From an uncultured Thermoanaerobaculia bacterium (GTDB lineage: Bacteria > Acidobacteriota > Thermoanaerobaculia > Multivoradales > Multivoraceae): a stretch of DNA of 64,000 nt. Below, piece by piece: positions 8,530 to 24,194 of the stretch. A program made the position numbers and the translations under genes. Below the pieces are notes generated by a model. That model was not told the origin of the DNA and did not search any database. It was given only the letters and a program-made list of their open reading frames with translations. The stretch is taken from the NCBI GenBank assembly GCA_951813015.1, contig CATOTG010000011.1:129889-193888 (forward strand), read 5' to 3'. Numbering within the stretch: position 1 is the stretch's first letter; each line of letters opens with the position of its first letter.

Positions 8530-9139
8530 CGTCCGGTTCCACCGGCGCCAGGGCGATCGCGGCCTGGGTCGGTTCCTCCTCGGCCGCGGCCAGGAACGTC
8601 TCCTCGAACTCCTCGAGCGGCGGCAGCTCCGACAGCGAACGCAGACCGAAGTGCAACAGAAAGTCGCGCGTCGTGGCGTACAGAAACGGACTCCCGACCA
8701 CCTCCTTGCGGCCGGAGATGCGGATCAACCGGCGCTCGAGGAGGGTCTTCAACACGCCCGAGGAATTCCTGCCCCGCAGCTCCTGGATCTCCGGACTCGT
8801 GACCGGCTGTCGGTACGCCACGATCGCCAGGGTTTCGACCGCCGCGGTCGACAACCTGCTGCGGCCCGCCACCTCGAAGAACCGGCGAAGGTAGGGATGA
8901 AGGTCGGACCGGGTCACCAGGCGGTAACCGCCGCCGGCCCGGTCCAGGACGATGCCGCGGTCCGGCGATCCGCCCGTATCGTCTGGCCGGTAGCGGTCGA
9001 GAACCGCCTGAAGCGCCTCCATCGCGCGTTCCCGATCCTGTTCGGGGAACACCTCCAGGAGCTTCTCCTCCGGCTGAGGGTCGGGGCTGGCAAAGAGCAG
9101 CGCCTCGAACACCGCCTCCATCTCGGCCGCGTCGGTCAT
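8522..9139 (-). CDS. scpB: segregation and condensation protein B
   Basis: ScpB winged-helix repeats (AIVAYRQPVTSPEIQELRG). Overlaps the scpA stop (ATGA). Confidence 0.85.
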   Translation of the reverse strand: MTDAAEMEAVFEALLFASPDPQPEEKLLEVFPEQDRERAMEALQAVLDRYRPDDTGGSPDRGIVLDRAGGGYRLVTRSDLHPYLRRFFEVAGRSRLSTAAVETLAIVAYRQPVTSPEIQELRGRNSSGVLKTLLERRLIRISGRKEVVGSPFLYATTRDFLLHFGLRSLSELPPLEEFEETFLAAAEEEPTQAAIALAPVEPDDG

Positions 9140-9939
9140 CCGGCCAGATCCTCAAGCAAGATCGGATCCAGCGCGCGCGTCGTGCGGAACAGGAACACCG
9201 AGCCGCCGTCCGATGCGTGGAGGCGAACCAGATTGAGACGGGCCATCTCCAGCACGGCCAGGAAACACGCGATCGCTTCCGCCCGGCTCGACAGGGCGAA
9301 CAGATCGTCCTTCAGGTCGAGCGACCGGCCACCCTCGAAGCGGCCGAGGAGGCGCTCGACCTGGTCCCGGACGCCGAACGTCTCGCCCTGGTAGATCAAC
9401 GGACCGGGGTGCTCCTCGTCGTAGCGGGTGAGCACTCCCCGCAACACCTGGAGCAGGTCGAACAGCGAAAGATCGCCCAGGTCGAACTCCTCGTCCCCGT
9501 CATCTCCCAACGTTTCCGTGGCGCCGCGGATCCACAGCCCGTGGCGCAGGTCGTCGACCTCGGCCAGCGTCTGGGCGGCCTCCTTGAGCCGCTGGAACTC
9601 CAGCAGCCGTTCGATCAGTTCACGGCGCGGATCTTCCGGCTCCTCGCCGGGCGCGGGCTCGGGCTGCGGCAGCAACACCCTGGCCTTGAGTTGAATCAGG
9701 AGGGCCGCCTCGTAGATGTACTCGGCGGCGATGTCGAGGTCGAGACCGTCCATCAGGCCGAGGTACTCATGGAACTGATCGCAGATTGTGGCGACCGGGA
9801 TATCCGTGATCTCGATCTCGTTGATTCGGACCAGGTGAAGCAACAGATCGAGTGGACCCTCGAACTGCGGCAACTCGACCCGCCAGGAGGCCGGCAGCAG
9901 ACTGGTTGCCGCCCGGGCGCTGGCCGGTCCTGTACTCAT
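9136..9939 (-). CDS. scpA: segregation and condensation protein A
   Basis: Start at the ATG at 9939 (MSTGPASARAATSLLP...). ScpA motif LPQFEGPLDLLLHLVRINEIEI. Upstream ORF extension judged spurious. Confidence 0.85.
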   Translation of the reverse strand: MSTGPASARAATSLLPASWRVELPQFEGPLDLLLHLVRINEIEITDIPVATICDQFHEYLGLMDGLDLDIAAEYIYEAALLIQLKARVLLPQPEPAPGEEPEDPRRELIERLLEFQRLKEAAQTLAEVDDLRHGLWIRGATETLGDDGDEEFDLGDLSLFDLLQVLRGVLTRYDEEHPGPLIYQGETFGVRDQVERLLGRFEGGRSLDLKDDLFALSSRAEAIACFLAVLEMARLNLVRLHASDGGSVFLFRTTRALDPILLEDLAG

Positions 9940-10115
9940 CTGCGCGGATTCTTCCACACCGGCGACACCGATCCGGCGATTCCCTCCAGCGCCCCCCAGG
10001 ACCATTCCTTTAGTCCTGCGCTCCACTCCGGGCGCGGGCGGGAGGCATTCATTCCCGAGAATCGAGAGCCGTGCCGGCGCCGAGTGCCGATACCGGAGTG
10101 GTTTCCTCACATCGG

Positions 10116-11369
10116 TCACCGAAGTTCCCGACTTTGGAACGGCTCTGCCAGCGCCTCCAGCCACTGTTGCGCGGCGTGCTCCGGCCGGTAGCGGCGGTCC
10201 AGCCGGCGGCGTCCCGCCGCGCCGCGCCGGCGCGCTTCCGCGGGATCGGAGGTCGCCGCGATCAATGCGTCGGCGAGAGCGCCGGAACGCTCCGGCGGCG
10301 CCAGCCAGCCGGTCTCCCCGTCGACCACGACCTCCGGAATGCCGCTGACGGCCGAAGCGATGACGGGGATCCCGTCGTCCATCGCCTCGAGGACGACCAG
10401 CGGCATCCCCTCGTAGGTGGAGGGAACGACGAGGGCCGCTGCGCGCTGCCGCAACCGGGCGACTTCCGAGCGTGAGCAGCGGCCGGCAAAGTGCACCGCG
10501 GTTCCCAGCCGAAGACCGCGCGCCAGGGCCGCCAGGGACTCGCGCCGCTCCCCGTCGCCCGCGATGACCAGCCGCGGCGCGTGTCCCCGTTCACGGACCG
10601 CCGCCAGCGCGTGGAGCAGGATCTCGAATCCCTTGCGGATCCGCATCCGGCCGACCGCAAGCAGGAACGGCTCCGGGCCGAAGACAACCTCGCCCGGACT
10701 CTCCCCTCTCTGCCGATCGTCCGAGTGGTACAGGGATGCTCCGACCACCACCTGCTGGCGATCAACGAACGGCTCGGCTCTCTCCCGATCGTCCGGGCGG
10801 TCCAGGGATGCTCCTGTCGCGTTGGGTACCACTCGAACCCCGTTGACGCCGTAGTCGCTTTCGATTTCCCTCGCCGTGGCCCGGCTCGGCGCCAGGCAGA
10901 CGTCCGCGCACCTGGCCGACATCCGGCCCAGGGCGATGTGCACCGGCGTACGCAGGGCACGAAAGACACGCTCGCTCCCCCGAGGCCGCGCAACCACTGC
11001 AAAGCGGCGGTCGGCGTCGACCAGCGGCCGGACCGCCCGGCGCTCGCGGACGTAGCTCACCTGCTGCAGAGCGGCAAGCAGCGGCCGGTCGGCCGCGCGC
11101 AACCGGGCAAGGTCCCGGATCACCAGACCGCCGTCGCTCTCGTGGACCTGCACGACATCCGGCGCCCATTCGGCGACCCGGCGGGCAACGGCCCGCCTCG
11201 CGTACCAGGGAAACGCGGTCTTCGAGACCCTCGGGCCACACCGGTCGCGGCCCAGGACCTCGACCTCGCAGCCGGCATCACGCAGGCCCCAGGCGAGCTG
11301 CAGCACCTGTTCGCCGGCGCCCGAGAGATCGCGGGGGGGCAGGACGTTGGCAACCAGGAGAACCTTCAC
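10116..11369 (-). CDS. glycosyltransferase family 4 (GT-B, group 1)
   Basis: EX7E region VVPSTYEGMPLVVLEAMDDGIPVIASAVSGIPEVVVDGETG. GTG start at 11369 lies inside a repeat copied from the recG terminus. Contains an internal ~37-bp segment duplicated at 10706 and 10780. Confidence 0.8.
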   Translation of the reverse strand: MKVLLVANVLPPRDLSGAGEQVLQLAWGLRDAGCEVEVLGRDRCGPRVSKTAFPWYARRAVARRVAEWAPDVVQVHESDGGLVIRDLARLRAADRPLLAALQQVSYVRERRAVRPLVDADRRFAVVARPRGSERVFRALRTPVHIALGRMSARCADVCLAPSRATAREIESDYGVNGVRVVPNATGASLDRPDDRERAEPFVDRQQVVVGASLYHSDDRQRGESPGEVVFGPEPFLLAVGRMRIRKGFEILLHALAAVRERGHAPRLVIAGDGERRESLAALARGLRLGTAVHFAGRCSRSEVARLRQRAAALVVPSTYEGMPLVVLEAMDDGIPVIASAVSGIPEVVVDGETGWLAPPERSGALADALIAATSDPAEARRRGAAGRRRLDRRYRPEHAAQQWLEALAEPFQSRELR

Positions 11370-11600
11370 GGCTCCACGGTCCCCTGGGACGAGAGAGGCG
11401 CCCGGGGCGAGAGATGCGCGATCCGCGCACGGGCGCCGTAGATGTCGAAGCGCGAATCTCGCCGGGGAGGCCGAGGACGCGTTCGGGGCGCGTTCCGCGC
11501 ACGGGCGCCGTACATGTCGAAGCCCTTCACGGCTCCGCCGTCCTCTGGGACGGGAGAGGCTCCCGGGACGGGAGAGGCTCCCGGGACGAGAGGGCGATCC
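11363..11600. repeat. complex ~160-bp segmental direct repeat spanning the recG 3' end and the glycosyltransferase 5' end
   Basis: X unit ([43 protein letters not shown]) occurs at 11365 and 11525. Y unit (ccgcgcacgggcgccgtaSatgtcgaag) occurs at 11425 and 11495. Confidence 0.8.
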
Positions 11601-13698
11601 CGGGAATCCGGCGCTCCAAACGGCGCCGCAGCGCCTCGTTCTCCGGCGCCGCGAGCCGGTCCAGAAGCACCGAGGCGTCGGTACGAGCCGCCACGAGCCA
11701 CTTCCAGTCCCGGGCCGGGTCGCCGAAGCGGAACTGCGGCAGACCGGCCTGGCGCGTGCCGAGCACCTCGCCCGGCCCCCGCTGCCGCAGGTCCTCCTCG
11801 GCGATGCGGAAGCCGTCGTTCGATTCCTCGAAAACGGCCAGCCGTCGCTCGGCCTCGGCCGAAGACCCGCCCGAGACCGCGATGCAGATGGACTCCCCGA
11901 GGGCTCGATTTGTTCCGCGGCCGATGCGCCCCCGAAGTTGATGAAGCTGGGCCAGCCCGAAGCGCTCGGCGCCGAGGATCACCATCGCGGTCGCCTCGGG
12001 TACATCGACGCCGACCTCGATCACGGTCGTCGCCAGCAGCACCTCGATCGAACCGTCTAGGAAGCGACTCATCGTCCCGTCGCGCTCGTCGCGCCCCACA
12101 CGACCGTGGACGACGCCGCACGGCGCTCCAAGCGCATCGGCCCACCAGGAAGCCGACTCCTCGAGCGACGGCAACGCGGCTGCGCTCCCCTCCCCGGCGT
12201 CGATCAGGGGAAACACGACGTATGCCCGGCCACCGCGACGAAGCCGCTCGCGCACGAGCTCCACAGCCTGATCCCGCTGGTCCGCGCTGATCACCCGGGT
12301 CTCGACCGGACTGCGGCCAGGCGGCATCTCGTCCAGAATCGACACGTCGAGGTCACCGTACACGGTCAGCGCCAACGACCTGGGAATCGGCGTCGCGGTC
12401 ATCACCAGGAGGTCCGGTCGCTGCCCCTTCTCCGCCAGGGACTGCCGCTGGGCGACACCGAAGCGATGCTGCTCGTCGATCACGGCCAGTCCCAGGCGCG
12501 CAAAGCGGGTTCGTTCCTGGATCAACGCGTGCGTGCCGACCGTCAGGTCGACCCGGCCGGCGGCGATGCGCTCCCTCACCGCCGCGCCCCCGTCACTGGC
12601 GACGTGCTGGCTGGAGGTCACCAGGGCCAGGGTGAGATGCGACTCCAGCAGCCGCGCCAGGGAAGTGAAGTGCTGTTCCGCGAGCAGCTCCGTCGGCGCC
12701 ATCAGGGCCGACTGCAGGCCGCTTTGCGCCGCGACCAGGCAGGCCAGGGCGGCAATCACCGTCTTGCCGCTGCCGACATCCCCCTGCACCAGGCGCAGCA
12801 TCGGCCGCGGGCCGGACAGGTCCCCGACGATCTCCTGGAGCACGCGTTCCTGGGCACCGGTCAACTGGAACGGCAGCAGACCCCGCGCCTCGCGCCACGC
12901 CGAATCGCAGATCCGGTAGCCGTGCGGCTTCCCCTGCCGCCGGCGGCGCCTGCGAACGGCGGCAAGCTGCAACTGCTGGAGCAGGAACTCCCCGTAAGCG
13001 AGGCGCGCGTGGGCCGGACTCCGCCGCTCGTTCAGTTCGCCAACCGATGCCTCCGGTGAAGGTCGATGGACCTCGGTCAGGGCTTCCGCCAGGCTCGGCA
13101 GGCCGTGCCGGGCCCGTTCTTCCTCGGGCAACCACTCGTCGATCCACTCGGCTCCGCGGGACGCCGCCAGATCCCGCACGACCCCGCCCGCCAGCCGCTC
13201 CACCCGCGACGGCGGCACGTCTCCGATGCGCCCGTAGACCGGCCGTACGCCGCCCCTGGGCGTTTCCTCGCCCACCCGCTCGACGGTCGGGTTCGCCAGT
13301 TCCCAGGCGCCGTCGCCGCCCCGGCGCCGGGGCACGCCGTGGAGCAGGTAGGAGGCGCCCTCCTCCAGTTGATTCAGCAGATAGGGCCGGTTGAACCAGA
13401 CCACGCCGGCCCGGTTCTCGCCGTCGTCCGCGATCGCCTGCACGCGCGAGAACCGGCCGCGGCCGAACACCCGCCGCGGCTTCTCAAGGCGCACGACGAC
13501 GGTCAACGCGCCAGGCGCGGTTTCGGGCGACGCCTCCTCCTCCGGCCCCGGCAACCGCCCGAGCGTGCGCCGGTCCTCGTAGCGGATCGGCAGGTGGGCC
13601 AGGAGGTCCCTTATCCGCCGGCAACCCGCGTCCGCCAGTTTGCCGCCCAGCACGGGGCCAACACCGCGCGCACTGGTGATCGGGTCGCCCGCTTCCAT
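11527..13698 (-). CDS. recG: ATP-dependent DNA helicase RecG
   Basis: Wedge/OB N-terminus. SF2 motifs: GDVGSGKT, DEQHRFG, QLHQLRGRIGR. C-terminal tail SREPLPSREPLPS is encoded by the repeat. Confidence 0.9.
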   Translation of the reverse strand: MEAGDPITSARGVGPVLGGKLADAGCRRIRDLLAHLPIRYEDRRTLGRLPGPEEEASPETAPGALTVVVRLEKPRRVFGRGRFSRVQAIADDGENRAGVVWFNRPYLLNQLEEGASYLLHGVPRRRGGDGAWELANPTVERVGEETPRGGVRPVYGRIGDVPPSRVERLAGGVVRDLAASRGAEWIDEWLPEEERARHGLPSLAEALTEVHRPSPEASVGELNERRSPAHARLAYGEFLLQQLQLAAVRRRRRRQGKPHGYRICDSAWREARGLLPFQLTGAQERVLQEIVGDLSGPRPMLRLVQGDVGSGKTVIAALACLVAAQSGLQSALMAPTELLAEQHFTSLARLLESHLTLALVTSSQHVASDGGAAVRERIAAGRVDLTVGTHALIQERTRFARLGLAVIDEQHRFGVAQRQSLAEKGQRPDLLVMTATPIPRSLALTVYGDLDVSILDEMPPGRSPVETRVISADQRDQAVELVRERLRRGGRAYVVFPLIDAGEGSAAALPSLEESASWWADALGAPCGVVHGRVGRDERDGTMSRFLDGSIEVLLATTVIEVGVDVPEATAMVILGAERFGLAQLHQLRGRIGRGTNRALGESICIAVSGGSSAEAERRLAVFEESNDGFRIAEEDLRQRGPGEVLGTRQAGLPQFRFGDPARDWKWLVAARTDASVLLDRLAAPENEALRRRLERRIPGIALSSREPLPSREPLPSQRTAEP

Positions 13699-13744: not shown

Positions 13745-14626
13745 TCAGCCGATCACTTCGAGCATCCCCGACTTCGGGTCGAGCCGGACCGGCGCTCCCA
13801 GGGGCAACGTGTGATTGGGCGCCTGGTGGCCCGCCGGCAACCCGACCAGAAGCGGCACATCCAGCGCCTCGGCAAAGTCGATCAAGCTGTCGCGCGCGTC
13901 GCAGTTGGTGAAGTGGCCGGCGACCACGGCCCGCACACCCGCGATGTGACGGGAAGTCCGGAGCTGGGTCAACAGGCGGTCGATCCGGTACTCGGGCTCG
14001 TCGATGTCCTCCAGCAAGAGGACGCAGTCCCGAAGATCGGGAAGGAAACCCGTTCCGGTCGTCGCTGCCAGCATCGTCAGACAGCCACCGAGCAGACGCC
14101 CCTCGATCACCTCCGGTCGGCCGGCCGACACCCCGACGACCGGCGCCAACTGCCAGGCCGGGCCCGGTTTCCCGGCCAGCGCCTCAAGAAAGGACGTCCG
14201 CTCCTCCGAACGCAGCCCGCGGGCGAAGTCAACCACCATCGGGCCGTGGTAGGCCACCGTACCGGCGCGAGACACGAGGCCCAGGAGCAAGGGCGTCAGG
14301 TCGGAGTAGCCCACGCAGGGCCGCGGACGGGAGGCAAGCAACGACCAGTCGATCCCCCCCAGCAGCCTGGTCACGCCGTATCCGCCCCGGGCGAAGACGA
14401 TGGCCGCGACCCTGTGGTCCGCAGCCAGTTCGTGGAACGCAGCCAGGCGCTGACGGTCCGAGCCCGCGAACAGCGACCTTCCTTCGCGAATCGCCCCGGA
14501 CCGCAGGTTGGACGCGAGCACCACCTCGAAGCCGAGGTCTTCGAGCGCCTGCACCCCGCCGGAAAGGCGCTCCGGGTCGATCGGTCCGGAGAGCGCCGCA
14601 ATGCCGATCCGGTCGCCGGGCCGCAC
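13745..14626 (-). CDS. ldcA: LD-carboxypeptidase (peptidase S66 family)
   Basis: S66 motifs: AIVFARGGYG, CVGYSDLTPLL, and VGLPAGH with H near the C-terminus. The track ORF starts at TTG 14677, which would touch the RNase P RNA 3' end. The GTG at 14626 (VRPGDRIGIAALSG) is preferred; the start is uncertain. Confidence 0.75.
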   Translation of the reverse strand: MRPGDRIGIAALSGPIDPERLSGGVQALEDLGFEVVLASNLRSGAIREGRSLFAGSDRQRLAAFHELAADHRVAAIVFARGGYGVTRLLGGIDWSLLASRPRPCVGYSDLTPLLLGLVSRAGTVAYHGPMVVDFARGLRSEERTSFLEALAGKPGPAWQLAPVVGVSAGRPEVIEGRLLGGCLTMLAATTGTGFLPDLRDCVLLLEDIDEPEYRIDRLLTQLRTSRHIAGVRAVVAGHFTNCDARDSLIDFAEALDVPLLVGLPAGHQAPNHTLPLGAPVRLDPKSGMLEVIG

Positions 14627-14677
14627 GGCAGGCGGACGCGCCGCGCCACGCCGCGTTCCTTTGCTACGAAGGGTCAA

Positions 14678-15097
14678 GTGCCGGAGGACCTCGTAAGCCG
14701 GATTCTGTTCGTCCCGTCACCGTCAGGCGAAAGGAGGCGGCCATTCATCTTTGCGACCTACCCGGAGAGCGTCCCGGACTGCGAACAACCCGGCATCGGG
14801 ACGGACAGCCCGAACCGCACTCCCTATTTGGTCTTGCTCCACATGGGGTTTGCCATCGCCTCGCACCGTCGCCGGCCGAGCGGTGCGCTCTTACCGCACC
14901 GTTTCACCCTTGCCGGCGCTGCGGCCCTGAAGCCCTGGGTGGGCGCCGGAACCACTGCGCCGGCGGTCTGCTCTCTGTTGCACTTTCCGTCGCGTCACCA
15001 CGCCTTGCCGTTAGCAAGCATGCCGTCCGTTGGAGTCCGGACTTTCCTCCCCCGGCGGGCAAGCCGCCGGGAGCGACCGCATCCGGTCCTCCGGCAG
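14678..15097 (-). ncRNA. rnpB: RNase P RNA (bacterial type A)
   Basis: Universally conserved segments on the reverse complement: GGAGGAAAGTCCGGAC (P4), AGTGCAACAGAGAGCAGACCGCC, AAGGGTGAAACGGTGCGGTAAGAGCGCACCG, GGAGCAAGACCAAATAGGGAG, ACAGAATCCGGCTTAC (P4 3' strand). A 12-bp P1 helix joins CCGGAGGACC with GGTCCTCCGG. Confidence 0.85.
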
Positions 15098-15202
15098 GCA
15101 GGAGGTTAGCAGTATCCATTCAGGACGTTGGGAATGGCGGTGGCGGCCAAACTGCTCAACGGCCCTGTTGGCCACAGCCCGAAACGGTCCGACCACCACT
15201 CC

Positions 15203-15232
15203 CCATCGGCGCCCCCGCGAGGGCGCCGATGG
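15203..15232. terminator. perfect 12-bp inverted repeat (ccatcggcgccc-ccgcga-gggcgccgatgg) between the mod stop and the rnpB 5' end
   Basis: Palindrome seen directly. No U-tract follows. It could terminate mod transcription or insulate the rnpB promoter. Confidence 0.4.
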
Positions 15233-15324
15233 GCCGGGTTCTCCCTCAGGCGCCGGAAGGCCAAGCTGAACAGACAAGCCCGCCAACCACTCATGTGGCG
15301 CCGGAATCGACGGGCGGCGGGAGG

Positions 15325-18062
15325 TCACCGGTCAGCGGAAGGAAGTTCGACGACGGCCAACATCTCGTCGCCGAAGGTGGTCACGATCCGCACGGCAATC
15401 CGGCCGCGCTCCGGGCGGCGGAACGGCGCCGAGGTGAGGGACTCCATGAACTCCCACTGTTTCGGGTCCACCCGCGCACCGAGCCGCTGCTTGAACGCCT
15501 TGATCTGCCTGTCGTTCGACTTGCCCGGGAAGTGAATCCGGCGGGCGAAGAAGGAGCGCCCGTCGTAGTCCGTGTCCAGCATCCAGCAGTCGATGTCGCT
15601 TGTCTTGCCCGCAGGCCGGACATTGCCTGTGCCCGGATCGTAGACCTGGTAGCCGCGCACCCGGACCTGCCAGGCGCCGTCCTCTCTTCGAATCGGCTCG
15701 AGATCCGGCTCGCCAACCAGGACGAAGGCCGTGTCCTCCCGTCCGGACTTCAGTGCCCGGATCGTCAGGTCACGGTTTGCGCGAACCAGCACGATCTGCA
15801 GCCTGCCCCGCTCCTCGTTCGTCGCCTGGGCATCGAAGTGGAAGGCAACGATCAGCAGTTTGGCAAAGCCGCGGCGCGCCGCCACAAGGGCTGCATCGTC
15901 GATCAGCTGCCGGGTGGCGGTACGGTCATCGGGGACCGTGGCGATCGCCACGCGCTCGCCCGCTGGTTCAGGAGCTCCTCTTGACAGCCCGGCAAACTCT
16001 CCGCCGCGTTCGTCTGCACCGCCGCCGCGTGCGACTTGCCTGGCGGCTTTCCCTTCCCGCCTCCCCGGCGCTGCGGGCGGCCCGTCAGGGGTCGACCCGG
16101 GCTCCTCCGCCACGACGACTCGCAGCGTTGCCTCGTGGGTCAGGAAGACGGGAGGGGCCGCGTCCTCCGAAAGTTCGATGCCGTCGAAACGCCACCGCGC
16201 GCCCGCTGCGCCCTTAGGCCAATCGGGCGCTGCGATGCCGGCAACCTCCAGGGCGTGGACGACGTTCTCCCGTATCGCTGTCTCCCGCTCATCGTGTCGA
16301 GCCTCACGCTCCGGACGCTCGTCACCGCCCTCTGCTTCTCCGCTGGGCGACACGTACAGCCACGGCGAATGGGACTCGACGGTGAACGGCGAGGCGATCC
16401 GCTTGACGCCTCGTTTCGCCACCGGCTTGTTGACGAGCAGTGTCGCTCTTCGCGGTCGGTCGTAGGCGAGATGGGCGGCCGACACGTAGGGCACGCGCTC
16501 GTAGACGAACCCCGACGAAGGATCGCCCCCCCCCCCCCCCCCCCTGAGTCTCTCTCGCTCACATAATCGTCGAGCCGGTCCGCAAGCTTCGCCTCTTCCT
16601 TCCCACCCTCCGCGTCGTCCCGGGTCAGGAACCACTGGTGAACCGAGGAAAGGACGCGTTGCCGGCACAGGGCGACCGGAACGGCCGAAGCATCGATCGT
16701 GATCCACCGTCGCCCCCAGCGCTCGGCGACCGCGGCGGTGGTGCCGGAGCCGCAGGTCGGGTCGAGGACCAGATCGCCCGGGTCGGTCGCCATCAGCAGG
16801 CAGCGCTCGATCGTCTTCTCCGCCGTCTCGACGACATAGTGCATGTCGCTCGCGGATTGCTGTTGGCGCCAGAGGTTGTTGATCTGCTTTCCCGGCACTT
16901 CGTCCTCGTAGCGTTTCCACGCCAGCGTTCCCTTTGCCACCAGCCGGTTCGTCCGGGCAAGGTGGTCCATCCCCGCGGCATCGACCCGCCATTGCTCGCC
17001 GGGCGGGCACGAGAACACCGTCCCCTCCCATGCGTAGGGATCCGACCGGCCGGTCGTGGACACCTTGGCGGAAGCCAGGCGCATCCGCCGGAAGAGCCTG
17101 GCGCCTTCCGGCAGTTCGCCGTCGGGATCGAGCCGCTCGGCGGGCTGGAGGTCACGGCAGGCGCCGTCCGCCAGCTCGACCATCGCGTGCCACGACATGT
17201 GCTCCAGCTTCTCTTTCCGGTTCAGGGGGTCGTAGAGCTGGTGGTACGTCACCCGGCCCTTGTCCTTCGCGTACCAGAGCAGCCAGTCGGCGACCTGGGG
17301 CAGGTTCCTGGCCGATGTCGCCCCCGACTTCGCAAACGCGATCGTCGCCACGCGGTTCTCCGCGCCGAACACCTCGTCGAGCACGACGGACAGGCGATGC
17401 ACGTTCTCGGTGCCAATCTGCAGGAAGAACGAACCCCGGTCCCGGAGCAGCGCCCGGGCGTGAACGGCGGTGCGGAAGACGGTGTCCATGTACGAGTGCA
17501 GGCCGTCGACATAGGTATCCCGGAACGCCCGGCGCGAAGCCGCCTCGACGGGCGGGCTGTTCTCGGTCCGCTTCCGCGTGCTGCCCTGGTAGTTGCTGTT
17601 GAACCCGATGCCGTAGGGCGGGTCGAAGTAGATGAGTTGGACCTGGCCCGCCATGCCCTCCTTCTCCGCCAGTGACGCCATCACCTCGACCGAATTGCCG
17701 CGGATGATCCGGTTCTGCCAGTTCCCCTCGTACCGGTACCAGTCGTAGCGGGCCTCCTGCGGCAGGCCATTGAAGTCGGCGAAGAAGCTGCGCTGCTCGT
17801 CTTCGGCGCCATCCCTGGAGATCTGCTCGACGAAGGCGGCGGGGCTGACCTTCTCGTGGATGTACAGGGGCATCGCGTCCGTTTCGATGCGCTGCGCATC
17901 CGTTCCCCGCCGCCAGCTGAGGCGCGGTCCCTCCGTGCCGGCCGGCTGGGGCGAGAACGGGACCCGCTCACGCACCTCGTCGACGTAGACCTCGTCCCGG
18001 TCCGTCGGAATGTTCCTTCGCTTGGCGCCGCTGTGCTCGTAAGGCCGTGTCTTCGGAGCCAT
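15325..18062 (-). pseudogene. mod: Type III R-M modification methyltransferase (beta-class N6-adenine MTase) mod, frameshifted at a G19 tract in this sequence; candidate phase-variable gene
   Basis: N-terminal segment (18062..~16545, ORF 16140..18062): motif IV DPPY (IYFDPPYGIGF), then motif I LVLDPTCGSGTTAAVA. Immediately 3' of the poly-G tract (16526-16544) the sense reading continues in another frame (ORF 15325..17031) for ~400 codons. That segment has a conserved-looking C-terminal region (CWMLDTDYDGRSFFARRIHFPG...GRIAVRIVTTFGDEMLAVVEL). The two ORFs differ by frame +1/-2. Confidence 0.75.
16526..16544 (-). repeat. homopolymeric tract C19 (plus strand) = G19 in the mod coding strand; putative slipped-strand phase-variation switch
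   Basis: Block counting gives 19 consecutive C. The ORF-track translations DSGGGGGGAIL (frame A) and LRGGGGGGDPSS (frame B) are both consistent with 19 G. Confidence 0.85.
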
Positions 18063-18065
18063 CTA

Positions 18066-18079
18066 CCCCCCCCCTTTTT
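18066..18079 (-). repeat. G9 + A5 homopolymer pair between the SD (GGAG) and the mod ATG
   Basis: Minus strand reads GGAG-AAAAA-GGGGGGGGG-TAG-ATG. The tract lengths set the SD-start spacing. Confidence 0.7.
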
Positions 18080-18251
18080 CTCCGCCGGTCCCTTGAGTCT
18101 TCGCAGCCCGTTCAACCCCGGCAGACCCGGAAGCCCCGGTACGCCCGGACCATCCCCGCTTCGCTGCGTTCCAGGGTGCGTTCCGCGACGCCGTCCTCGG
18201 CGCGACCGGCGCCGTGGGCCAGCGGTTCGCGAACTCCTGTTCGCAGCCCGT

Positions 18252-21197
18252 TCAACCTCGGCACGCCCGGGCGATCTGCTCGCGCGCGTCCCCGATGTTC
18301 TCGATCCACACGGCGCGCCAGGCGCCGTGGTCGTCCACCCCTCCCGGGCCGCCCGCGGGTCGCCGGGAAACGGCCGGGACCCAGCGCTGCTCCAGGTAGC
18401 GGCGCTTCTGCTCCTCGCTCACCTCACCGGCCCGCAGACCCTTGAACTCGATGACCAGGCAACGGCTGCGCCCGCCGGGCGCCTGCGCCTTCGCGCGGGC
18501 CACGAAGTCCGGTTCCGTGCGTGCCCAGCAGGCGTTCCCGCTGTCGTACCAGGGCACCGTCCAGCCCAGGCGGAAGTTACGCACCCAGGCTTCGACATCG
18601 GGGTGGCGGTCGAGAATCTCCGCAAGTCTGGCCTCGTCGCTCGAGTGGCAGGCGGCGGCGTTCAGTTCCGACTTCGCCGTGTCGTCGTACCAGTACCGCA
18701 GCGTGGTGCGAAAACGGACACTGCCGGTGTCGCTGGTCCGCCCGGCGCCCGGCGCGCGCTGATCCTCGAACACGGCGCCAACACAGGGTTCCCCATCGAG
18801 ACAACGCACGCGGGAGGCGATCGCGTGCAGCGTGTCCTCGTCGAACTGCAGGTCGGTCCAGTCCTCGCAGTCGAGGTTCGGCCGGCAGACGTCGAGGATC
18901 GCGAGAGCATCGAGGAAGGCCTGGCGCCGGTCATCCACGCCGCGCTCCAGCTTCGGCACCAGCTGAGCGGCGGCCTTCCACAGCGCCGTTCGTTCGTCCT
19001 CGGACTGCTGCCGGACGAGGATGGACTCTCCCAGCGGCCCCTCGACCGAGGTGCCGACCAGCGGCCCCCTCGGCGTCACGCGGCGACGCGGCGCGTCACG
19101 CGGCTCGATGCTCCAGCGCGGGGCGCCGCCGCCGTGAGCGTAGCCGGCCAGGTGCGGGAAGCGGAGTCGAAGGTGCTCGCGCCCCGGCAGCGTATGGACG
19201 TCCTGAGGCTCCACCGGAACCGGCGGCGTCCCCGGCGTCCTGCCTCCCGGCCAGGCAAAGGGGACGCCGAACAGATTCGCGTACTCGATGGGCTGCTTCT
19301 CGTCCCGGCCGCTGAACGCCGTCTTGCGCAGCGCGCGGCCGGTGACCTGCTCGCACAGCAGCTGGCTGCCGAAGGCGCGATAGCCGAATATGTGCGTCAC
19401 GTTTCGGGCGTCCCAGCCCTCGGTCAGCATGCCCACCGAGATGACGCAGCGAATGTGCTCTCCGGGTTCGCCCCGGCGACCGACGGACATGAAGACATCG
19501 CGGATCGCCTGCTGCTTCTCGGCCCGCGTGAGGGGCGCGTCAGCTTCGGCAGAGGGGGCGAACAACGCGGCCTGGTCCTCGATCGCCCTGCTGATCGCGT
19601 CGTTGCCGCCGGACGCCGGGTCGTCAAGGCGCGAGTGGACCAGGATGGTGGGTGGCCGTTCGACCGGTTGGCCGGTTGAGCGGTCGGCGTTCGAGAACAG
19701 CTCCAGGTTCCCCGCCTTCCAGACCTCGGCTTCGTCGTCATCCCCGCCGAGCGCCTCGCGGTAGCCGGCGATGTAGCGGTGAAGCGCCGTCGCGTTCCCG
19801 ATCGTGTTGGCGACCACGATCAGAACCGGAATCCGGCCCCTCGCCTCGTAGGCCGGCACGGTCTCTTCGGCATGGTGCTTGTAGAGTTCGTGCAGCGGTT
19901 CCGCGACCGCCGGCGCCAGCGGCTCGCCCAGCGCGCGCCTGTCGTTGTGCAGATACACGTTGCGATAGCGTGGCGCGAGGTGGATCGGCTGGCCGTCGGC
20001 GCCCAACGCCCGGTCGTCGACCGGCACGCGCGGCACCTTGACCAGGCCCGACTCCACGGCATCGAGCAGCGAGAAGTCGGAAACCGTCCACGGAAAGGTC
20101 TCCGCTTCGACCATCGCCGGTCGCCGCAGCCACATCGGCGTGGCCGACAGGTCGAAGACCTGGCCCAGCCGCCGGTGCGCGCGGAGCGCCCGCAGCGCGC
20201 CAAACCAGAGCTCGGCCCGTTTCCTGTCCTCCTTCTCCTCCGCGTCGGCTGCTCCCTTTGCCAGCCTGACGTCCCTCAGCGTGTAGCAGTGATGGGCCTC
20301 GTCGTTCAAAACGGCGATTGGCCCGCCGCCACGGTGGGCCTTGAGCAGGCGGTCGAGCATCTGCCGCTCGCTCTCGATCCATGAGTGGAGGTCCCTGCGG
20401 CCTCGCATCGGACCGTAGAGCAGGTCCTTCTCCTTCCCCGTCGCCGCCTTTCCACCGACGTGCAGGCTGGACTTCCGCTGGAAGGCCTGGAAGTTGAGGA
20501 TCGTCCAGCGCATGCGCTTCACGTCGCCCTGAAACCCGGGTGGCGCCACGGACCGCCAGAGCTCGTCCTTCGGGTTCCGCAGCACCTGCAACCGATCACG
20601 GATCACAAGACCGGGCGCGAGCGCCAGCAGGTCGATCGGACCGTCCGGCTGGCGCACGGCCCACCACAGGGCGATCATCGCCATCAGGTGCGTTTTCCCG
20701 GTGCCGGTCGCCATCTTCGCGGCCACGCGGGGAATGCAGTCGTTCCAGCGGCCGTTGGCCTGCTCAAGCCGCGCAGCGATCCTCGCGCGGGCGTCGGGAG
20801 CGTGTGCCCGACCCGCGTCGAACAGCCAGATCAGCGTCTCGACCGCCTCGCGCTGGCACCAGAACGGACGCATCTCGGCGCGCTCGCCGGCCCAGTCCTC
20901 GAGCAGGCGCCGCACGCGGGGGGCAACACCCTTCCAGCTGGCCGCCCGCCAGTCGTCAACCAGCTCGCGAAGCTCGTTGATCGTCCGGTGCGGCTCGACG
21001 CTCGGGTCAGGCGGCGTCCAGTCCGACTCGTCGCCACGAGGATTGGGCACCGGCAGCTGGGTTGAACTGGGCCGCCGCCCGCTCGCCGTGGCGGCCTTCG
21101 CGCGTCCGTGCCCGTCCAGCTCCCAGTGCCTGTCCGGCGCCGCGTAGGGCGTGTGAAGCACCCAATCCGGCCCAACGCCCTGCTCGCTGTCGCTCAC
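18252..21197 (-). CDS. res: Type III restriction enzyme Res subunit (SF2 helicase + C-terminal PD-(D/E)xK nuclease)
   Basis: Motif I MATGTGKTHLMAMIALW. Motif II VLNDEAHHC. Motif III LSATP. Motif VI VISVGMLTEGWDARNVTHIFGYRAF. C-terminal nuclease motif RCLVIEFKG. Apparent GTG start at 21197. Confidence 0.85.
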   Translation of the reverse strand: MSDSEQGVGPDWVLHTPYAAPDRHWELDGHGRAKAATASGRRPSSTQLPVPNPRGDESDWTPPDPSVEPHRTINELRELVDDWRAASWKGVAPRVRRLLEDWAGERAEMRPFWCQREAVETLIWLFDAGRAHAPDARARIAARLEQANGRWNDCIPRVAAKMATGTGKTHLMAMIALWWAVRQPDGPIDLLALAPGLVIRDRLQVLRNPKDELWRSVAPPGFQGDVKRMRWTILNFQAFQRKSSLHVGGKAATGKEKDLLYGPMRGRRDLHSWIESERQMLDRLLKAHRGGGPIAVLNDEAHHCYTLRDVRLAKGAADAEEKEDRKRAELWFGALRALRAHRRLGQVFDLSATPMWLRRPAMVEAETFPWTVSDFSLLDAVESGLVKVPRVPVDDRALGADGQPIHLAPRYRNVYLHNDRRALGEPLAPAVAEPLHELYKHHAEETVPAYEARGRIPVLIVVANTIGNATALHRYIAGYREALGGDDDEAEVWKAGNLELFSNADRSTGQPVERPPTILVHSRLDDPASGGNDAISRAIEDQAALFAPSAEADAPLTRAEKQQAIRDVFMSVGRRGEPGEHIRCVISVGMLTEGWDARNVTHIFGYRAFGSQLLCEQVTGRALRKTAFSGRDEKQPIEYANLFGVPFAWPGGRTPGTPPVPVEPQDVHTLPGREHLRLRFPHLAGYAHGGGAPRWSIEPRDAPRRRVTPRGPLVGTSVEGPLGESILVRQQSEDERTALWKAAAQLVPKLERGVDDRRQAFLDALAILDVCRPNLDCEDWTDLQFDEDTLHAIASRVRCLDGEPCVGAVFEDQRAPGAGRTSDTGSVRFRTTLRYWYDDTAKSELNAAACHSSDEARLAEILDRHPDVEAWVRNFRLGWTVPWYDSGNACWARTEPDFVARAKAQAPGGRSRCLVIEFKGLRAGEVSEEQKRRYLEQRWVPAVSRRPAGGPGGVDDHGAWRAVWIENIGDAREQIARACRG

Positions 21198-21871
21198 CGT
21201 CGCAGGATCGTAGCGTAGCGCAGCGTGCGGGGAGGAAGCGAAATTCGTCCCGGTAGGCCTCGTCCTGATCCCGGCGCAGCGCAGAGCGCGGGGCCGAAGC
21301 TCCGCGGCGGCGAAAGCAGTTCATCGTGCGCTCCGCCAAGACCCAGCAGCGTTTCGCAGCGACGTCGATCAGTCACTGCCCGCTGCCGTCCTTCAGGATC
21401 GAACTCCGGGATGGACTCTGGAGACCGCTGCCGCGGCCTTCTTCGCCGCTTCCTCTCCGGTCATGACCCGCGCAGAAAGACCTCCTCGACGGCAAGCGGA
21501 GCGAGGCGATCAGTCGAACCGGGCACCGCGTCGAGGCGCTCCGCTCCCCTTATCACACCGTCCGCCTGGTTTGACCAGTCTCCAAAGGGAACATGCCGGA
21601 ACACAAACCTGCCCTCAGCATCGGAAAGGCCTGCCGCGCCAGGTCCAACGCTTTCGCCTCGGCGCGCCGCGCGTCCGAAGCCGCGCTGAGGCCGCGGTTT
21701 CTTGTTGCGGCTCTGAGCGCGTTGAAATAGGGTCCGTCGCATTAGCCCCTCTCATGGCCGGTGTCCACGGTTTCCCGCCACCCTCTCTGCCAACGTACGT
21801 GACACAGGTTCCGTGCCCGTCGGCATCATTGTCACGATGGACTCGGTCATTGCTGCCTGTGGCCAGTTGGG

Positions 21872-22141
21872 GTGGTAGACATGGATCCTCTTCGGACTCG
21901 CATTCGAGACTTCATTCGGCCGCGCCGTCCGGCGCCCGGCTTCGCCTTCCGGTTGATTGCCTGCGCCCTGTTCGCTGCAATAGTCGTCTACGGGAACGTT
22001 CGGGACTCCTCGATGATCTCCGTGGGCGGGGTGCTGAGTTGGGGTTTGATCGTTGCAGCCATCGAGGCATGGCTCCGACGGCGGCGCATCGCTGGCGGAC
22101 TCCGGGAGTTACCCGACTCGGAACCGCCGTCACGCGAATAG
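21872..22141 (+). CDS. hypothetical small membrane protein (2 predicted TM helices)
   Basis: ORF of 89 aa in a locally lower-GC stretch upstream of res. Two hydrophobic helices (LIACALFAAIVVYG; ISVGGVLSWGLIVAAI). No family recognised. Confidence 0.3.
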   Translation: MVDMDPLRTRIRDFIRPRRPAPGFAFRLIACALFAAIVVYGNVRDSSMISVGGVLSWGLIVAAIEAWLRRRRIAGGLRELPDSEPPSRE

Positions 22142-22389
22142 GGGCGGCCGCTCGAGCAGCGGCCCGACCGCCCTGCCCGTCTCCTTGGGTACAACCTTCA
22201 TCCGCCCGTCTTCGAGTCATCGAAGGCGAGCGGATCAACTCCCGGCACGGGAGACGGATGACGATGTCCGCCAGCGGCGTAGCTCGTACGCGATCCGTGC
22301 GCGGAACGGCCGGATTGCGGTGACGGTGGACGTGGAACCGAAACGGCGATGGCCGAGGCCACGCGTTGCAGATGCTGGATCCGCAGACA

Positions 22390-24194
22390 CTACGAGGCGC
22401 CGTCCCGGCCACGGACCGAAGAGTAGACCGAACGGCCGAGCTTCGCGCCGAGAACCTCCCGGAGTTCCTCCTCCGACGCCCGGGTCACGCCGGTGTAGCT
22501 GCCGAACCGGCGCACGAGCAGCTTGCGCCGCTGCGGGCCGATGCCCCGCAGGTCGTCGAAGCGGCTTTGGAGGGTTCGCCGGGAGCGCCGACGGCGGTGG
22601 CGCGACACGGCGAACCGGTGCGCCTCGTCACGCACCTGCTGGAGGACGCGCAGGCCGGCATGGTTCCGCTTCAGCCGCAGCGGCGCGGGTCGCACCGGAA
22701 TGTAGATCTCCTCCTCCCGCTTGGCCAGTCCCACGACCGGCGTCTCGTCGACGCCCAGTTCGGCCAGTGCCTCGAGGGCCGCGTTCAACTGGCCGCGCCC
22801 GCCGTCGATCAGGATCAGGTCCGGCATCTCGCCGACTTCCTTCAGGCGGCGTCGGTAGCGGCGCTCCACCGCCTGCCGGATCGAGGCGAAGTCGTCCGCC
22901 TGCGCCAGGCCGCGGATGTTGAAGCTGCGGTACTCCTTCTTGACCATCCGGCCGTCGCTCCAGACCACCAGGGAGGCGACCGTCTCGCTGCCGCCGAAGG
23001 TCGAGATGTCGAAGCCCTCGATCCGCCGCGGCGGCTCTTCGAGGTCGAGTGCCGTCCGCAACGCCTCGCTGGCCTCGCCGGCGGCGGCGGCGCCGCGGAA
23101 CCGCCGGCGAAAGGCCATCCGGGCGTTGCGGTTCGCCAGCGCCACCCGCTCCGCCTTCGGTCCGCGCGATGGCATCCGGAGGTAGACCTTCGACTCGCGG
23201 CGTTCGCTCAGCCACTCCACCAGAGCCTGCTCACCCTCGATCGGCGCCGGCAGGTGGATCTCCCTGGGAATGAGCGTGGTCCGATCGTAGAGTTGCGGCA
23301 GCAGCTCCGACAGCAGGCGCTCGGCGGTGATCTTCGAAACGCCCTCCCAGAACAACTCGCGGCGATCGAGCACCTGGCCGCCGCGCATGACCAGGACGAC
23401 GACCGCCGCGTTGTCGCCGCGAACGTGGACGCCGAAGATGTCGACGTCCTCGCCCCGGTCCGAACTCAGCTTCCGTCGCTGGCTGATCGATGCGATCTCC
23501 TGCATCGTGTCGCGAAGACGGGCCGCCGTCTCGAACTCCAGGCGGGTCGCCTCTGTCCGCATCCGGCCGCGCAGGTCCCGCAGCAACTCGTCGTTCCTGC
23601 CTGCGAGAAACAGGCGCGCCTTCTCGACCGCCTCGGCATAGGCCTCGTCGGTCGTCAGGCCGTCGACGCAGGGCCCCAGGCAGCGCTTCATGTCGTGGTA
23701 GAGGCAGGGTCGCGGCAGGCTGCCGTCTATCTCGATCCGGCACACCCGGATGCCGAACAGCTTCTGCGTCAGCTTGATCGCCTTCCGCGCCAGACCGGCG
23801 GGAAGGTACGGGCCGTAGTACTCCGCGCCGTCGCGGCGAATGCGCCGGGTGAAGGCAAGGCGCGGATGCCCGTCGGCGAGGGTGAGCTTGAGATAGGGAT
23901 ACGTCTTGTCGTCTCGCAGCCGGATGTTGAACCGCGGCTGCCGGCGCTTGATCCAGTTGTTCTCGAGCAGCAGCGCCTCGGCCTCCGAGTCGGTGACGAC
24001 GAACTCGATATCGGCCGCGTCCTGGAGCATCAGGGCGATGCGTGGATCCTCCGCCCGCACTCGGTAGGACGCCGCACGCCGCCTGAGGGACTTCGCCTTG
24101 CCGACGTACAGCGCCTCGCCGACCTCCCCCTTGAAGATGTAGATCCCCGGCTGATCCGGAAGCTCTCCCAGCCGCTGCCGCAGCTCCCGGCGCA

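Follow-up and report, generated by a model that had tools for sequence, protein, structure and literature searches.

A length-variable G19 homopolymer in a Type III-like mod gene of an uncultured acidobacterium: a very probable phase-variation switch

Introduction

In the 64,000-nucleotide stretch of DNA analyzed here (the window), a gene for a Type III-like DNA methyltransferase (mod) is split into two reading frames by a run of 19 G nucleotides. The question raised by this locus is whether the run acts as a reversible genetic switch, reflects a miscounted homopolymer or marks a gene that is being lost. The host, an uncultured relative of Candidatus Multivorans within the Thermoanaerobaculia (Acidobacteriota), probably lives in association with sponges. 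Phase variation of Type III methyltransferases is well established, mostly in culturable, host-adapted pathogens. The G19 locus is very probably a new instance of this known kind of switch, namely phase variation of a Type III-like restriction-modification (R-M) system, and it is considered likely that the run is a real hypermutable tract that controls the production of full-length Mod.

The tract and its reading frames

The mod gene lies on the minus strand and comprises 912 codons if its two parts are fused (18062 to 15325). An earlier note, made from the sequence of the window, had described a G19 homopolymer at positions 16526 to 16544 that divides mod, and exactly 19 C nucleotides are present there on the plus strand, with a different frame in use on each side. 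On the minus strand this hypermutable tract encodes a run of Gly residues in a linker. The 5′ segment of mod (16545 to 18062, minus strand) contains codons 1–506, which specify the N-terminal region, the beta-class methyltransferase (MTase) core and a target-recognition insert. The 3′ segment (15325 to 16525, minus strand) contains a C-terminal module of 399 codons and the stop codon, and its frame is reached with a tract of G17, G20 or G23.

With G19, the open reading frame (ORF) that begins at 18062 passes through the tract and ends at 16140 (stop codon at 16140 to 16142, minus strand). Its product of 640 amino acids from the ATG matches the recorded protein P0038 exactly and is composed of 506 native residues, six Gly residues and an out-of-frame tail of 128 residues. 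The second frame remains open past the tract to the stop codon at 15325 to 15327. When the tract length is changed in silico, G17, G20 or G23 yields a single ORF of 911–913 codons, and G18, G19, G21 or G22 leads to an early stop, which for G19 is located 134 codons from the start of the tract. The frame arithmetic of the earlier note, in which G17 or G20 fuses the two segments and G19 leads through about 134 out-of-frame codons to a stop at 16140, is reproduced by these translations.

The window has a G+C content of 69% and contains seven C runs of 6 nucleotides, four of 7, one of 9 and one of 19. Because these counts fall approximately four- to fivefold with each additional base, the expectation for a 19-mer is approximately 1e-7 per window, and chance does not account for G19. 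Apart from it, just one run reaches 9 or more, a C9 at 18066 to 18074 (plus strand), which forms a second G tract on the minus strand, 3 nucleotides upstream of the mod ATG, at a place where relatives have a Shine-Dalgarno-like element. This tract is itself length-polymorphic (G9 or G10). The res-mod spacer also contains two copies of a 31-nucleotide direct repeat (18100–18130 and 18240–18270), the second of which spans the res stop codon, and the pair marks a duplication of 140 nucleotides. A scan of positions 14600 to 22600 for promoters and terminators gave none above background.

The Mod and Res proteins

The identification of the gene as a Type III mod, proposed in the earlier note, is borne out by homology searches and by the adjacent res-like gene. 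The Pfam family PF01555 (N6_N4_Mtase) matches residues 141–459 of Mod with 98.8 bits (cutoff 26.7), the best PADLOC match is MTase_III (E 2.7e-136), and the Mod subunit of EcoP15I (4zcf) is the top relative of solved structure, both by sequence (E 3e-11) and by Foldseek (E 2e-15). The motifs DPPY (147–150) and DPTCGSGTT (434–442) can be read directly from the sequence, both upstream of the tract. The placement of DPPY ahead of the AdoMet-binding motif, with the target-recognition insert between them, is the order of a beta-class amino-MTase.

More than 100 homologues are single proteins of 840–915 amino acids that cover 99–100% of the fused ORF, and the 3′ segment therefore belongs to mod, as the earlier note had assumed. 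The candidate reading of this segment as an independent gene is ruled out, since every homologue is a fused protein and the vicinity of the tract contains no in-frame start. The tract lies at codon 507 of 912, with the complete MTase core upstream of it. In the AF2 model of an in-frame orthologue, P0003, the corresponding Gly run (508–510) forms a low-confidence loop (pLDDT <50) between a helix (498–504) and a strand (522–527). The linker is hypervariable across 120 homologues, and tract-free relatives have the residues ‘SGGQND’ at this place, a plausible seed for the G run. The C-terminal module matched no Pfam family, and its fold matches are generic.

These features qualify the earlier description of mod as currently switched OFF, a label that also depends on the exact count of 19 in a single assembly. 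Full-length Mod would indeed be lost in the G19 frame, but the MTase core (residues 141–459) and its catalytic motifs are retained and only the C-terminal module is removed. Because the frameshift lies downstream of the whole core, a loss of MTase activity is not implied by the sequence. The OFF state of a phasevarion, in which a phase-variable methyltransferase governs a regulon, would lack that activity, and methylation and expression across the genome would differ between ON and OFF variants.

The res-like gene upstream of mod (18252 to 21197, minus strand) is intact and encodes 981 amino acids, with an SF2 helicase and, C-terminal to it, a PD-ExK motif. Residues 13–977 of Res align end to end with positions 5–968 of 970 in the NCBIfam model NF046055 (‘BPTD_3080 family restriction endonuclease’; 599.9 bits, E 8.6e-180). 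By this alignment Res is a relative of the family and is not called a member, since its score is under the cutoff of 800; a literature search found no paper that mentions BPTD_3080. The Pfam model ResIII matches 10 of 10 members of the Res family (best E 1e-9), with the window Res alone scoring 20.3 bits, slightly below the cutoff of 22.5, and PADLOC matches to REase_III are weak. An alignment of the ten members contains the invariant motifs KMATGTGKT (Walker A), NDEAHHC, SAT, QxxGRALR and EPDF...ExK, which together describe an SF2 helicase with a C-terminal PD-(D/E)xK nuclease, encoded next to mod. Among PDB sequences, neither the single Res sequence nor a Res profile gave a significant hit.

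Type III operons typically have the order mod then res and encode a Mod of approximately 600–650 amino acids, features that are typical and not strictly defining. Biochemically, Type III enzymes are marked by ATP-dependent cleavage at a pair of unmethylated sites in inverse orientation and by hemimethylation of one strand. In the window the order is res (21197 to 18252) and then mod (18062 to 15325), and the system is labeled ‘Type III-like’ because both this order and the 912-residue Mod are atypical. The window, L001 and L004 have the two genes at the same chromosomal site (uvrC, res, mod, S66 peptidase, recG), from which the operon is judged to be kept over genus-level divergence.

Tract lengths in relatives

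Within the window species (97% nucleotide identity), the tract is G19 in the window, G19 in L006, G21 in L089 and G31 in L005, where the latter three sequences come from one metagenome assembly. All four alleles are out of frame, and in L089 the stop follows immediately after the seventh Gly. In a sister lineage, L002 and L003 have G10 and L090 has G11, both out of frame, and L007 has an in-frame G12. These three alleles show 0 mismatches over the 1.3–2.6 kb of flanks compared; G10 and G11 derive from short-read assemblies, and the assemblies with G10, G11 and G12 may share the same or related read sets. In another lineage, the out-of-frame C15 of L004, a circular genome of 396x coverage, is matched over 9 kb by the identical sequence of L008 with an in-frame C17. 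L001 and L009, which represent Candidatus Multivorans, have an in-frame G14. The in-frame alleles of L001 and L008 are on long-read contigs of 5–6x coverage.

Tract length is therefore polymorphic at the same linker site in four lineages, and both in-frame and out-of-frame alleles are present. In-frame alleles are confined to the sister lineages, with none among the four of the window species (chance p about 0.2). A mononucleotide run of at least 9 inside an ORF, with a unit that is not a multiple of 3, combined with different lengths in identical or nearly identical sequences and with alleles in both frame states, is the pattern of a simple sequence repeat (SSR) contingency locus. The proposal of a phase-variable switch gains support from these length differences between identical or 97% identical sequences and from the two frame states in sister lineages. 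A search of JGI metagenome contigs with a DNA pattern of flank, tract and flank found 0 further alleles, and a protein scan of the same contigs found one tract-free relative, L091, which reads ‘VSGGQND’.

Tracts also occur more widely in the res-mod family. Across 80 homologous loci, 12 of the 14 G or C runs of at least 9 fall in res or mod (p=0.014), including tracts directly after the res ATG. By the names of their metagenome-assembled genomes (MAGs), the homologous loci seem to be largely from sponge symbionts, archaea included. A search of the literature for phase variation by SSRs among sponge symbionts or in metagenomes turned up nothing directly relevant.

Selection and alternative explanations

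The downstream module can be compared between the window and L089, in both of which it is out of frame. In the fused frame the comparison gives a dN/dS of 0.21 (18 synonymous and 11 non-synonymous changes, p=5e-5 against neutrality), with no indel in 1197 nucleotides and no stop, and the wrong frames give dN/dS >1. Comparisons of the module with L001 and L007 give 0.17–0.19. Between strains res is intact and free of indels, with a dN/dS of 0.15–0.20. In the fused frame, purifying selection acts on the 3′ segment of mod, which argues for a reversible switch and against a dead pseudogene.

If mod were instead a decaying pseudogene, inactivated by a frameshift and on its way to being lost from the species, the tract would be a drifting scar of no function. 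This would fit the lack of in-frame alleles in the window species and the further damage seen there, since L005 (G31) is without the last ~680 nucleotides of mod as a result of a 4.1-kb insertion and the mod of L006 has two extra 1-nucleotide insertions, both frameshifts; in the L002/L007 lineage, moreover, res is split into 408 and 591 amino acids. The constraint on the uninterrupted module and on res speaks against decay, as do the in-frame alleles in three sister lineages and the tracts found at equivalent permissive sites in other phyla, and this explanation is regarded as very unlikely. A homopolymer miscount, in which the true length is in frame and G19 is a consensus error of long reads or assembly in an intact gene, is also improbable, if less so. 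An in-frame G20 is one base away, the contig names of relatives of the window species indicate hifiasm or metaMDBG-style long-read assemblies, L006 shows 1-nucleotide homopolymer differences elsewhere in mod, and a C4/C5 difference between L008 and the otherwise identical L004 indicates that low-coverage miscounts occur in such data. Out-of-frame lengths nevertheless recur independently: to produce both G21 and G31 within one species, errors would have to differ in size and sign, C15 is backed by the 396x genome, and G10 and G11 are backed by short-read assemblies. A wrong count would also leave a length-variable tract of 19–20 nucleotides in place, so that only the label ‘currently OFF’ would fall.

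The remaining alternative is slippage of RNA polymerase on the G run of 19–31 nucleotides, by which each cell, at any length of the DNA tract, would make a mixture of truncated and full-length Mod and the tract would set an isoform ratio and not a heritable ON/OFF state. Such a process would be compatible with selection on the module though all assembled alleles of the window species are out of frame, and the occurrence of two different frames fits products of ±1 and ±2 but agrees poorly with a fixed ribosomal frameshift. A fixed programmed ribosomal frameshift was ruled out as a separate candidate, as one species has the tract in two out-of-frame registers (G19 and G31 versus G21). The G tract is longer than the RNA-DNA hybrid, which counts for polymerase slippage, and the known bacterial cases of productive slippage during transcription mainly involve A/T runs, which counts against it. 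Since changes of tract length are seen in the DNA and suffice by themselves, polymerase slippage in place of a DNA-level switch is judged to have a low probability, though it could operate alongside one.

Proposed mechanism and significance

In the preferred reading, a phase-variable contingency locus, the tract would gain or lose G nucleotides through slipped-strand mispairing within the Mod coding sequence. The tract sits in what is predicted to be a disordered linker of variable sequence that joins the MTase core to the C-terminal module of ~400 residues, where in-frame changes of length would add or remove glycines and nothing else. Lengths equal to 2 modulo 3 (17, 20, 23) would give the full-length Mod of 912 residues. 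All other lengths would give a product of 513–640 residues in which the N-terminal, MTase and target-recognition parts remain and the C-terminal module is missing. Switching between these states would be reversible within clones, at the high frequency that defines an SSR contingency locus.

The effect of the out-of-frame state is suggested by analogy with EcoP15I. From its position, the C-terminal module may be the putative Res-contacting part of Mod. Because the MTase core is upstream of the tract and the module sits where the Res-contacting domain of EcoP15I sits, methylation may persist while restriction is lost. It is tentatively suggested, with less than even confidence, that the out-of-frame state would mainly uncouple Res and turn restriction off while possibly leaving methylation on. 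A broader proposal is somewhat more doubtful: that the tract is placed exactly at the junction of a self-sufficient methyltransferase part and the Res-recruiting part, that it toggles the system between r+m+ and r-m+, that the family evolved G/C-tract switches repeatedly and that such switches are a general feature of probably sponge-associated microbiomes. Repeated evolution would then have produced switches at res 5′ ends, at mod 5′ ends and in the linker, among symbionts that belong to several phyla of bacteria and to the Thaumarchaeota (Cenarchaeum, Nitrosopumilus).

The device known from cultured pathogens appears here in an uncultured acidobacterial lineage of high GC content and recurs in many homologous res-mod loci, which suggests that restriction barriers are switched stochastically in these probably sponge-associated communities. 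A testable idea follows from the location of the tract behind the MTase core, namely that the switch acts on restriction rather than on methylation. If true, the r+m+ to r-m+ toggle would be a self-safe means of opening and closing the barrier to foreign DNA, with the chromosome never left unmethylated, and SSR contingency loci would be a general defense feature of uncultured, probably sponge-associated microbiomes, archaea included. Long reads that carry a kinetic or nanopore methylation signal could tie tract length to methylation on each molecule. For annotation, the locus is a warning that an apparent ‘frameshifted pseudogene’ in a long-read MAG can in fact be an active contingency locus.

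Comparison with known systems

In characterized phase-variable mod genes the tract is generally near the 5′ end, whereas the tract in the window follows the complete MTase core and lies in a domain linker, at codon 507 of 912. The window Mod further differs from these systems in its extra C-terminal module of ~400 residues and in the order res-mod, and it belongs to an uncultured acidobacterium of high GC content, environmental or symbiotic, and not to a small-genome pathogen. Simple sequence repeats are carried by 17.4% of the Type III mod genes in REBASE, and by the published in silico criterion a G run of at least 9 marks a mod gene as phase-variable (Atack et al., 2018; PMC5909438). Like modH, modJ and modL of H. 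pylori and modU of Campylobacter upsaliensis, the window gene has such a tract inside the ORF of a Type III-type beta-class N6-adenine/N4-cytosine MTase, and as in other phase-variable mod genes its length shifts the frame and several lengths are found within one species (PMC5909438).

In EcoP15I, Mod dimerizes via its N-terminal and MTase domains, methylates alone and holds Res with its C-terminal domain (PMC4490356). The window system resembles EcoP15I (Mod2Res1, PDB 4ZCF) in its beta-class motif order, in the target-recognition domain inserted in the MTase domain and in a Res whose SF2 helicase precedes a C-terminal PD-(D/E)xK nuclease. In both, the MTase domain is followed by a linker and then by a C-terminal domain, and in EcoP15I it is this last domain that touches Res (PMC4490356). 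The two differ in that Mod identity is ~15% and the gene order is reversed, and the C-terminal domain of ~105 residues in EcoP15I bears no detectable similarity to the window module of ~400 residues, which has beta-sandwich parts. A further parallel is Cj0031 of Campylobacter jejuni, reported as a Type IIG R-M enzyme that is phase-variable and has a polyG tract within its gene (PMC4889913). By that account, expression of an R-M enzyme is switched on and off by an intragenic G tract, as proposed for the window, but Cj0031 is a single-polypeptide Type IIG enzyme and the window encodes a two-subunit, Type III-like system (PMC4889913).

Reading frames at the tract

The window carries exactly 19 C on the forward strand at 16526-16544, corresponding to G19 on the minus (coding) strand of mod, a 912-codon Type III-like methyltransferase gene running from 18062 to 15325. 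From the minus-strand ATG at 18062, a 640-codon ORF passes through the tract to a stop at 16140, and a second minus-strand frame is open from the tract to a stop at 15325-15327. Base count and ORF mapping confirm the claim of the earlier note that G19 splits mod into two frames, and its figure of about 134 out-of-frame codons before the stop at 16140 is right. Its frame arithmetic, by which G20 or G17 would fuse the segments, also holds: mod rebuilt in silico with 17, 20 or 23 G forms a single ORF of 911-913 codons, and 18, 19, 21 or 22 G lead to early stops. The window (69% G+C) contains seven C runs of length 6 and four of length 7, with 4-5 fold fewer per added base, and the C19 run is not explained by base composition.

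Identity of Mod and Res

The fused 912-aa Mod matches Pfam N6_N4_Mtase at aa 141-459 (98.8 bits), carries DPPY (147-150) and DPTCGSGTT (434-442) in the beta-class order and has the long PADLOC profile 'MTase_III' as its top match in that collection (E 2.7e-136). EcoP15I Mod is its closest solved structure by sequence (E 3e-11) and is also the closest solved fold to the AlphaFold model (pTM 0.80) of the in-frame orthologue P0003 (Foldseek E 2e-15). Directly upstream on the same strand, res (21197 to 18252) encodes a 981-aa product that matches, over its full length, NCBIfam NF046055 'BPTD_3080 family restriction endonuclease' at 600 bits, under the 800-bit cutoff. Among ten aligned Res family members, all matched by Pfam ResIII (best E 1e-9), the helicase motifs (Walker A KMATGTGKT, DEAH-type NDEAHHC, SAT and QxxGRALR) and the C-terminal nuclease motif EPDF...ExK are invariant. 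Judged by these Mod motifs and profiles and the Res helicase and nuclease motifs, res and mod form a Type III-like R-M pair that is atypical in two respects: the gene order is res-mod, and Mod exceeds that of EcoP15I by ~270 aa. Over 100 homologues, each a single protein of 840-915 aa, cover 99-100% of the fused Mod query; both segments are therefore one gene, which rules out the 3' segment as an independent gene.

Among named relatives, a MAG of Candidatus Multivorans sp. (Acidobacteriota, Thermoanaerobaculia) is the nearest, at ~82% DNA identity; it and the window share the gene order uvrC - res - mod - S66 peptidase - recG. Judging by MAG names, sponge symbionts of several phyla, among them the archaea Cenarchaeum and Nitrosopumilus, account for many of the other homologous loci. 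In L005, a circular 4.63-Mb genome of the window species, a ZorA-like gene takes the place of uvrC upstream, and sister lineage B has a G10 tract in the spacer between recG and scpA (L004 13278-13287; L008 13281-13290).

The res-mod spacer contains a 31-nt direct repeat at 18100-18130 and 18240-18270 (90% identical, 140 nt apart), and the res stop codon lies within its second copy. The repeat reflects the duplication of 140 nt from the 3' end of res, which is found in the window species and is absent from L001 (Candidatus Multivorans), L002 and L004 (sister lineages A and B). The one further run of at least 9 in the window, C9 at 18066-18074, lies three bases upstream of the mod start codon and reads as G9 on the minus strand, where it replaces the Shine-Dalgarno-like GGGGAGAGGA of relatives; the start region reads GGAGAAAAA-G9-TAG-ATG. 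This tract is polymorphic, being one G longer in L005 (G10) than in the window, L006 and L089 (G9), is preceded by A5 or A6, and may tune translation initiation of mod.

Tract length across relatives

Allele lengths were taken from DNA on the coding strand. The window-species sequences share 97% nucleotide identity; none of their four alleles is in frame, and they occupy two different registers: G19 in the window and L006, G21 in L089 (TGA after the seventh Gly codon, 513-aa product) and G31 in L005, where L006, L089 and L005 represent one primary and two alternate contigs from a single metagenome assembly. Sister lineage A has G10 (L002/L003) and G11 (L090), both out of frame, and G12 (L007), in frame with 877 aa, with zero mismatches across the flanks compared. 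Sister lineage B has a C tract, not a G tract, at the equivalent place: C15 in L004 (circular 3.87-Mb genome, 396x coverage) is out of frame and C17 in L008 is in frame (891 aa), the two being identical across 7515 + 1552 nt. The Candidatus Multivorans loci (L001/L009) carry G14, in frame with 878 aa. A length-variable homopolymer at the equivalent site in relatives thus supports the candidate phase-variable switch proposed from the window.

At this site the closest relatives without a tract have '...SGGQNDP...', a plausible seed for the G run. Across 120 homologues the tract stretch is the most variable part of Mod in length and sequence, and in the P0003 model it forms a low-confidence loop between the last MTase-domain helices (485-504) and the first strand of the C-terminal module (522-527). 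A hypervariable linker modelled in this way is predicted to tolerate extra glycines, as a coding-region contingency tract needs.

Selection and alternative explanations

The 399-codon module downstream of the tract (15325..16525) has no indel and no stop between the window and L089, which are both out of frame; 18 synonymous and 11 non-synonymous changes separate the two (dN/dS 0.21, p=5e-5 against neutrality). Read in the two wrong frames, the module gives 5.0 and 1.3. Corresponding values are 0.26 for the part of mod upstream of the tract, 0.15-0.20 for res and 0.17-0.19 for the module against L001 and L007. The low dN/dS and the lack of indels and stops indicate that translation of the module used the fused frame over much of the period after the strains diverged. 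Such selection is consistent with reversible switching or leaky decoding and speaks against a pseudogene that died long ago; together with the intact res, it contradicts pseudogene decay of mod for the window. Decay is seen in some strains: a 4.1-kb insertion in L005 has replaced the final ~680 nt of mod, and the L006 mod has two additional 1-nt insertions, which could also be alternate-contig errors. RNA-polymerase slippage on the G run, which may produce mixed Mod isoforms in every cell, would be consistent with selection acting on the module even where the DNA is out of frame, and it may operate alongside switching at the DNA level. Because the alleles occupy two different registers, a fixed ribosomal frameshift is improbable.

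The count of 19 may itself be wrong in this assembly, as low-coverage long-read contigs in the data set show small homopolymer differences. However, miscounting fails to explain recurrent out-of-frame lengths that differ in sign and size, C15 at 396x, or G10 and G11 in short-read assemblies, and if real would alter only the 'currently OFF' label.

The L005 insertion (8072-12207) contains a C18 homopolymer (8349-8366) together with a gene for a 965-aa protein that matches fn3 faintly. In sister lineage A, res is split into ORFs of 408 aa and 591 aa in all three assemblies (L002/L003/L007, 2974-5951). The window species also has a Gly/Ala/Arg/Pro-rich insertion, PDGPPAAPGRREGKAARQVARGGGADERGGEFAGLSRGAPEPAG, at window ~15870-16020 (Mod aa ~655-700), which makes a second variable linker of the C-terminal module ~35 aa longer and is absent from relatives; AlphaFold models it as disordered (module residues 155-183, pLDDT <50).

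Predicted effect of the out-of-frame state

The label 'currently OFF' stands for the assembled consensus only. It implies a complete OFF, whereas the entire MTase core and target-recognition insert are encoded ahead of the tract. The switched output would be full-length Mod, with the C-terminal module lost; methyltransferase activity need not be affected. This module has no Pfam family match, and its fold matches are limited to generic beta-sandwiches. EcoP15I Mod comprises an NTD (aa 14-60), MTase (62-262 and 390-516), TRD (263-384) and CTD (539-644); it dimerises via its NTD and MTase domains, is a stand-alone methyltransferase and makes extensive contacts with Res through the CTD of one protomer (PMC4490356). 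The window tract lies at the equivalent MTase-to-CTD junction. By positional analogy with these domain roles, we tentatively suggest, as a possible but rather doubtful outcome, that Mod of out-of-frame length still methylates and fails to hold Res, leaving restriction off and modification on.

Other tracts in the family

Tracts within the first ~10 codons after the res ATG occur in L012 (1039-1051, C13), L016 (846-859, C14) and L026 (1046-1058, C13), from Longimicrobiales and Bryobacterales MAGs, and each of these tracts currently leaves the ATG and the res body in different frames. The three res genes look phase-variable, and their tracts would switch restriction alone, a pattern that agrees with the restriction-off, modification-on outcome. 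Within mod, L023 (Thermodesulfobacteriota) has an in-frame C10 (5499-5508) in the same linker as the window tract, L056 (Spongiisociaceae) has G16 (5560-5575) just after aa 564, slightly downstream of the linker, and L014 (Bryobacterales) has a frameshifted G19 (4491-4509) near aa 160-170. C runs also lie inside res in L042 (Acidimicrobiales; C11, 2075-2085, frameshifted) and L027 (C12). Among archaea, a Nitrosopumilus MAG (L072) has an in-frame C12 (4002-4013) at mod codons 9-12, and L034 (592-605) and L028 (501-513, Cenarchaeum MAG) have G14 and G13 upstream of res; to our knowledge, SSR-type phase variation is hardly documented in archaea. Over 80 homologous loci, 12 of the 14 G/C runs of at least 9 fall within res or mod or at most 200 nt upstream (p=0.014).

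Comparison with known systems

Simple sequence repeats were reported in 17.4% (662/3805) of REBASE Type III mod genes, environmental species among them, using a mononucleotide criterion of G>=9; G[n] examples include H. pylori modH, modJ and modL and C. upsaliensis modU (Atack et al., 2018; PMC5909438). The window mod falls within this G>=9 class, so its switching mechanism would be of a known kind. One difference is that such tracts apparently recur across probably sponge-associated bacteria and archaea, a recurrence for which literature searches found no paper. The window subfamily further differs from known phase-variable Type III mod genes in its res-mod order and long Mod, in the placement of the tract after the MTase core and in its host, an uncultured high-GC acidobacterium.
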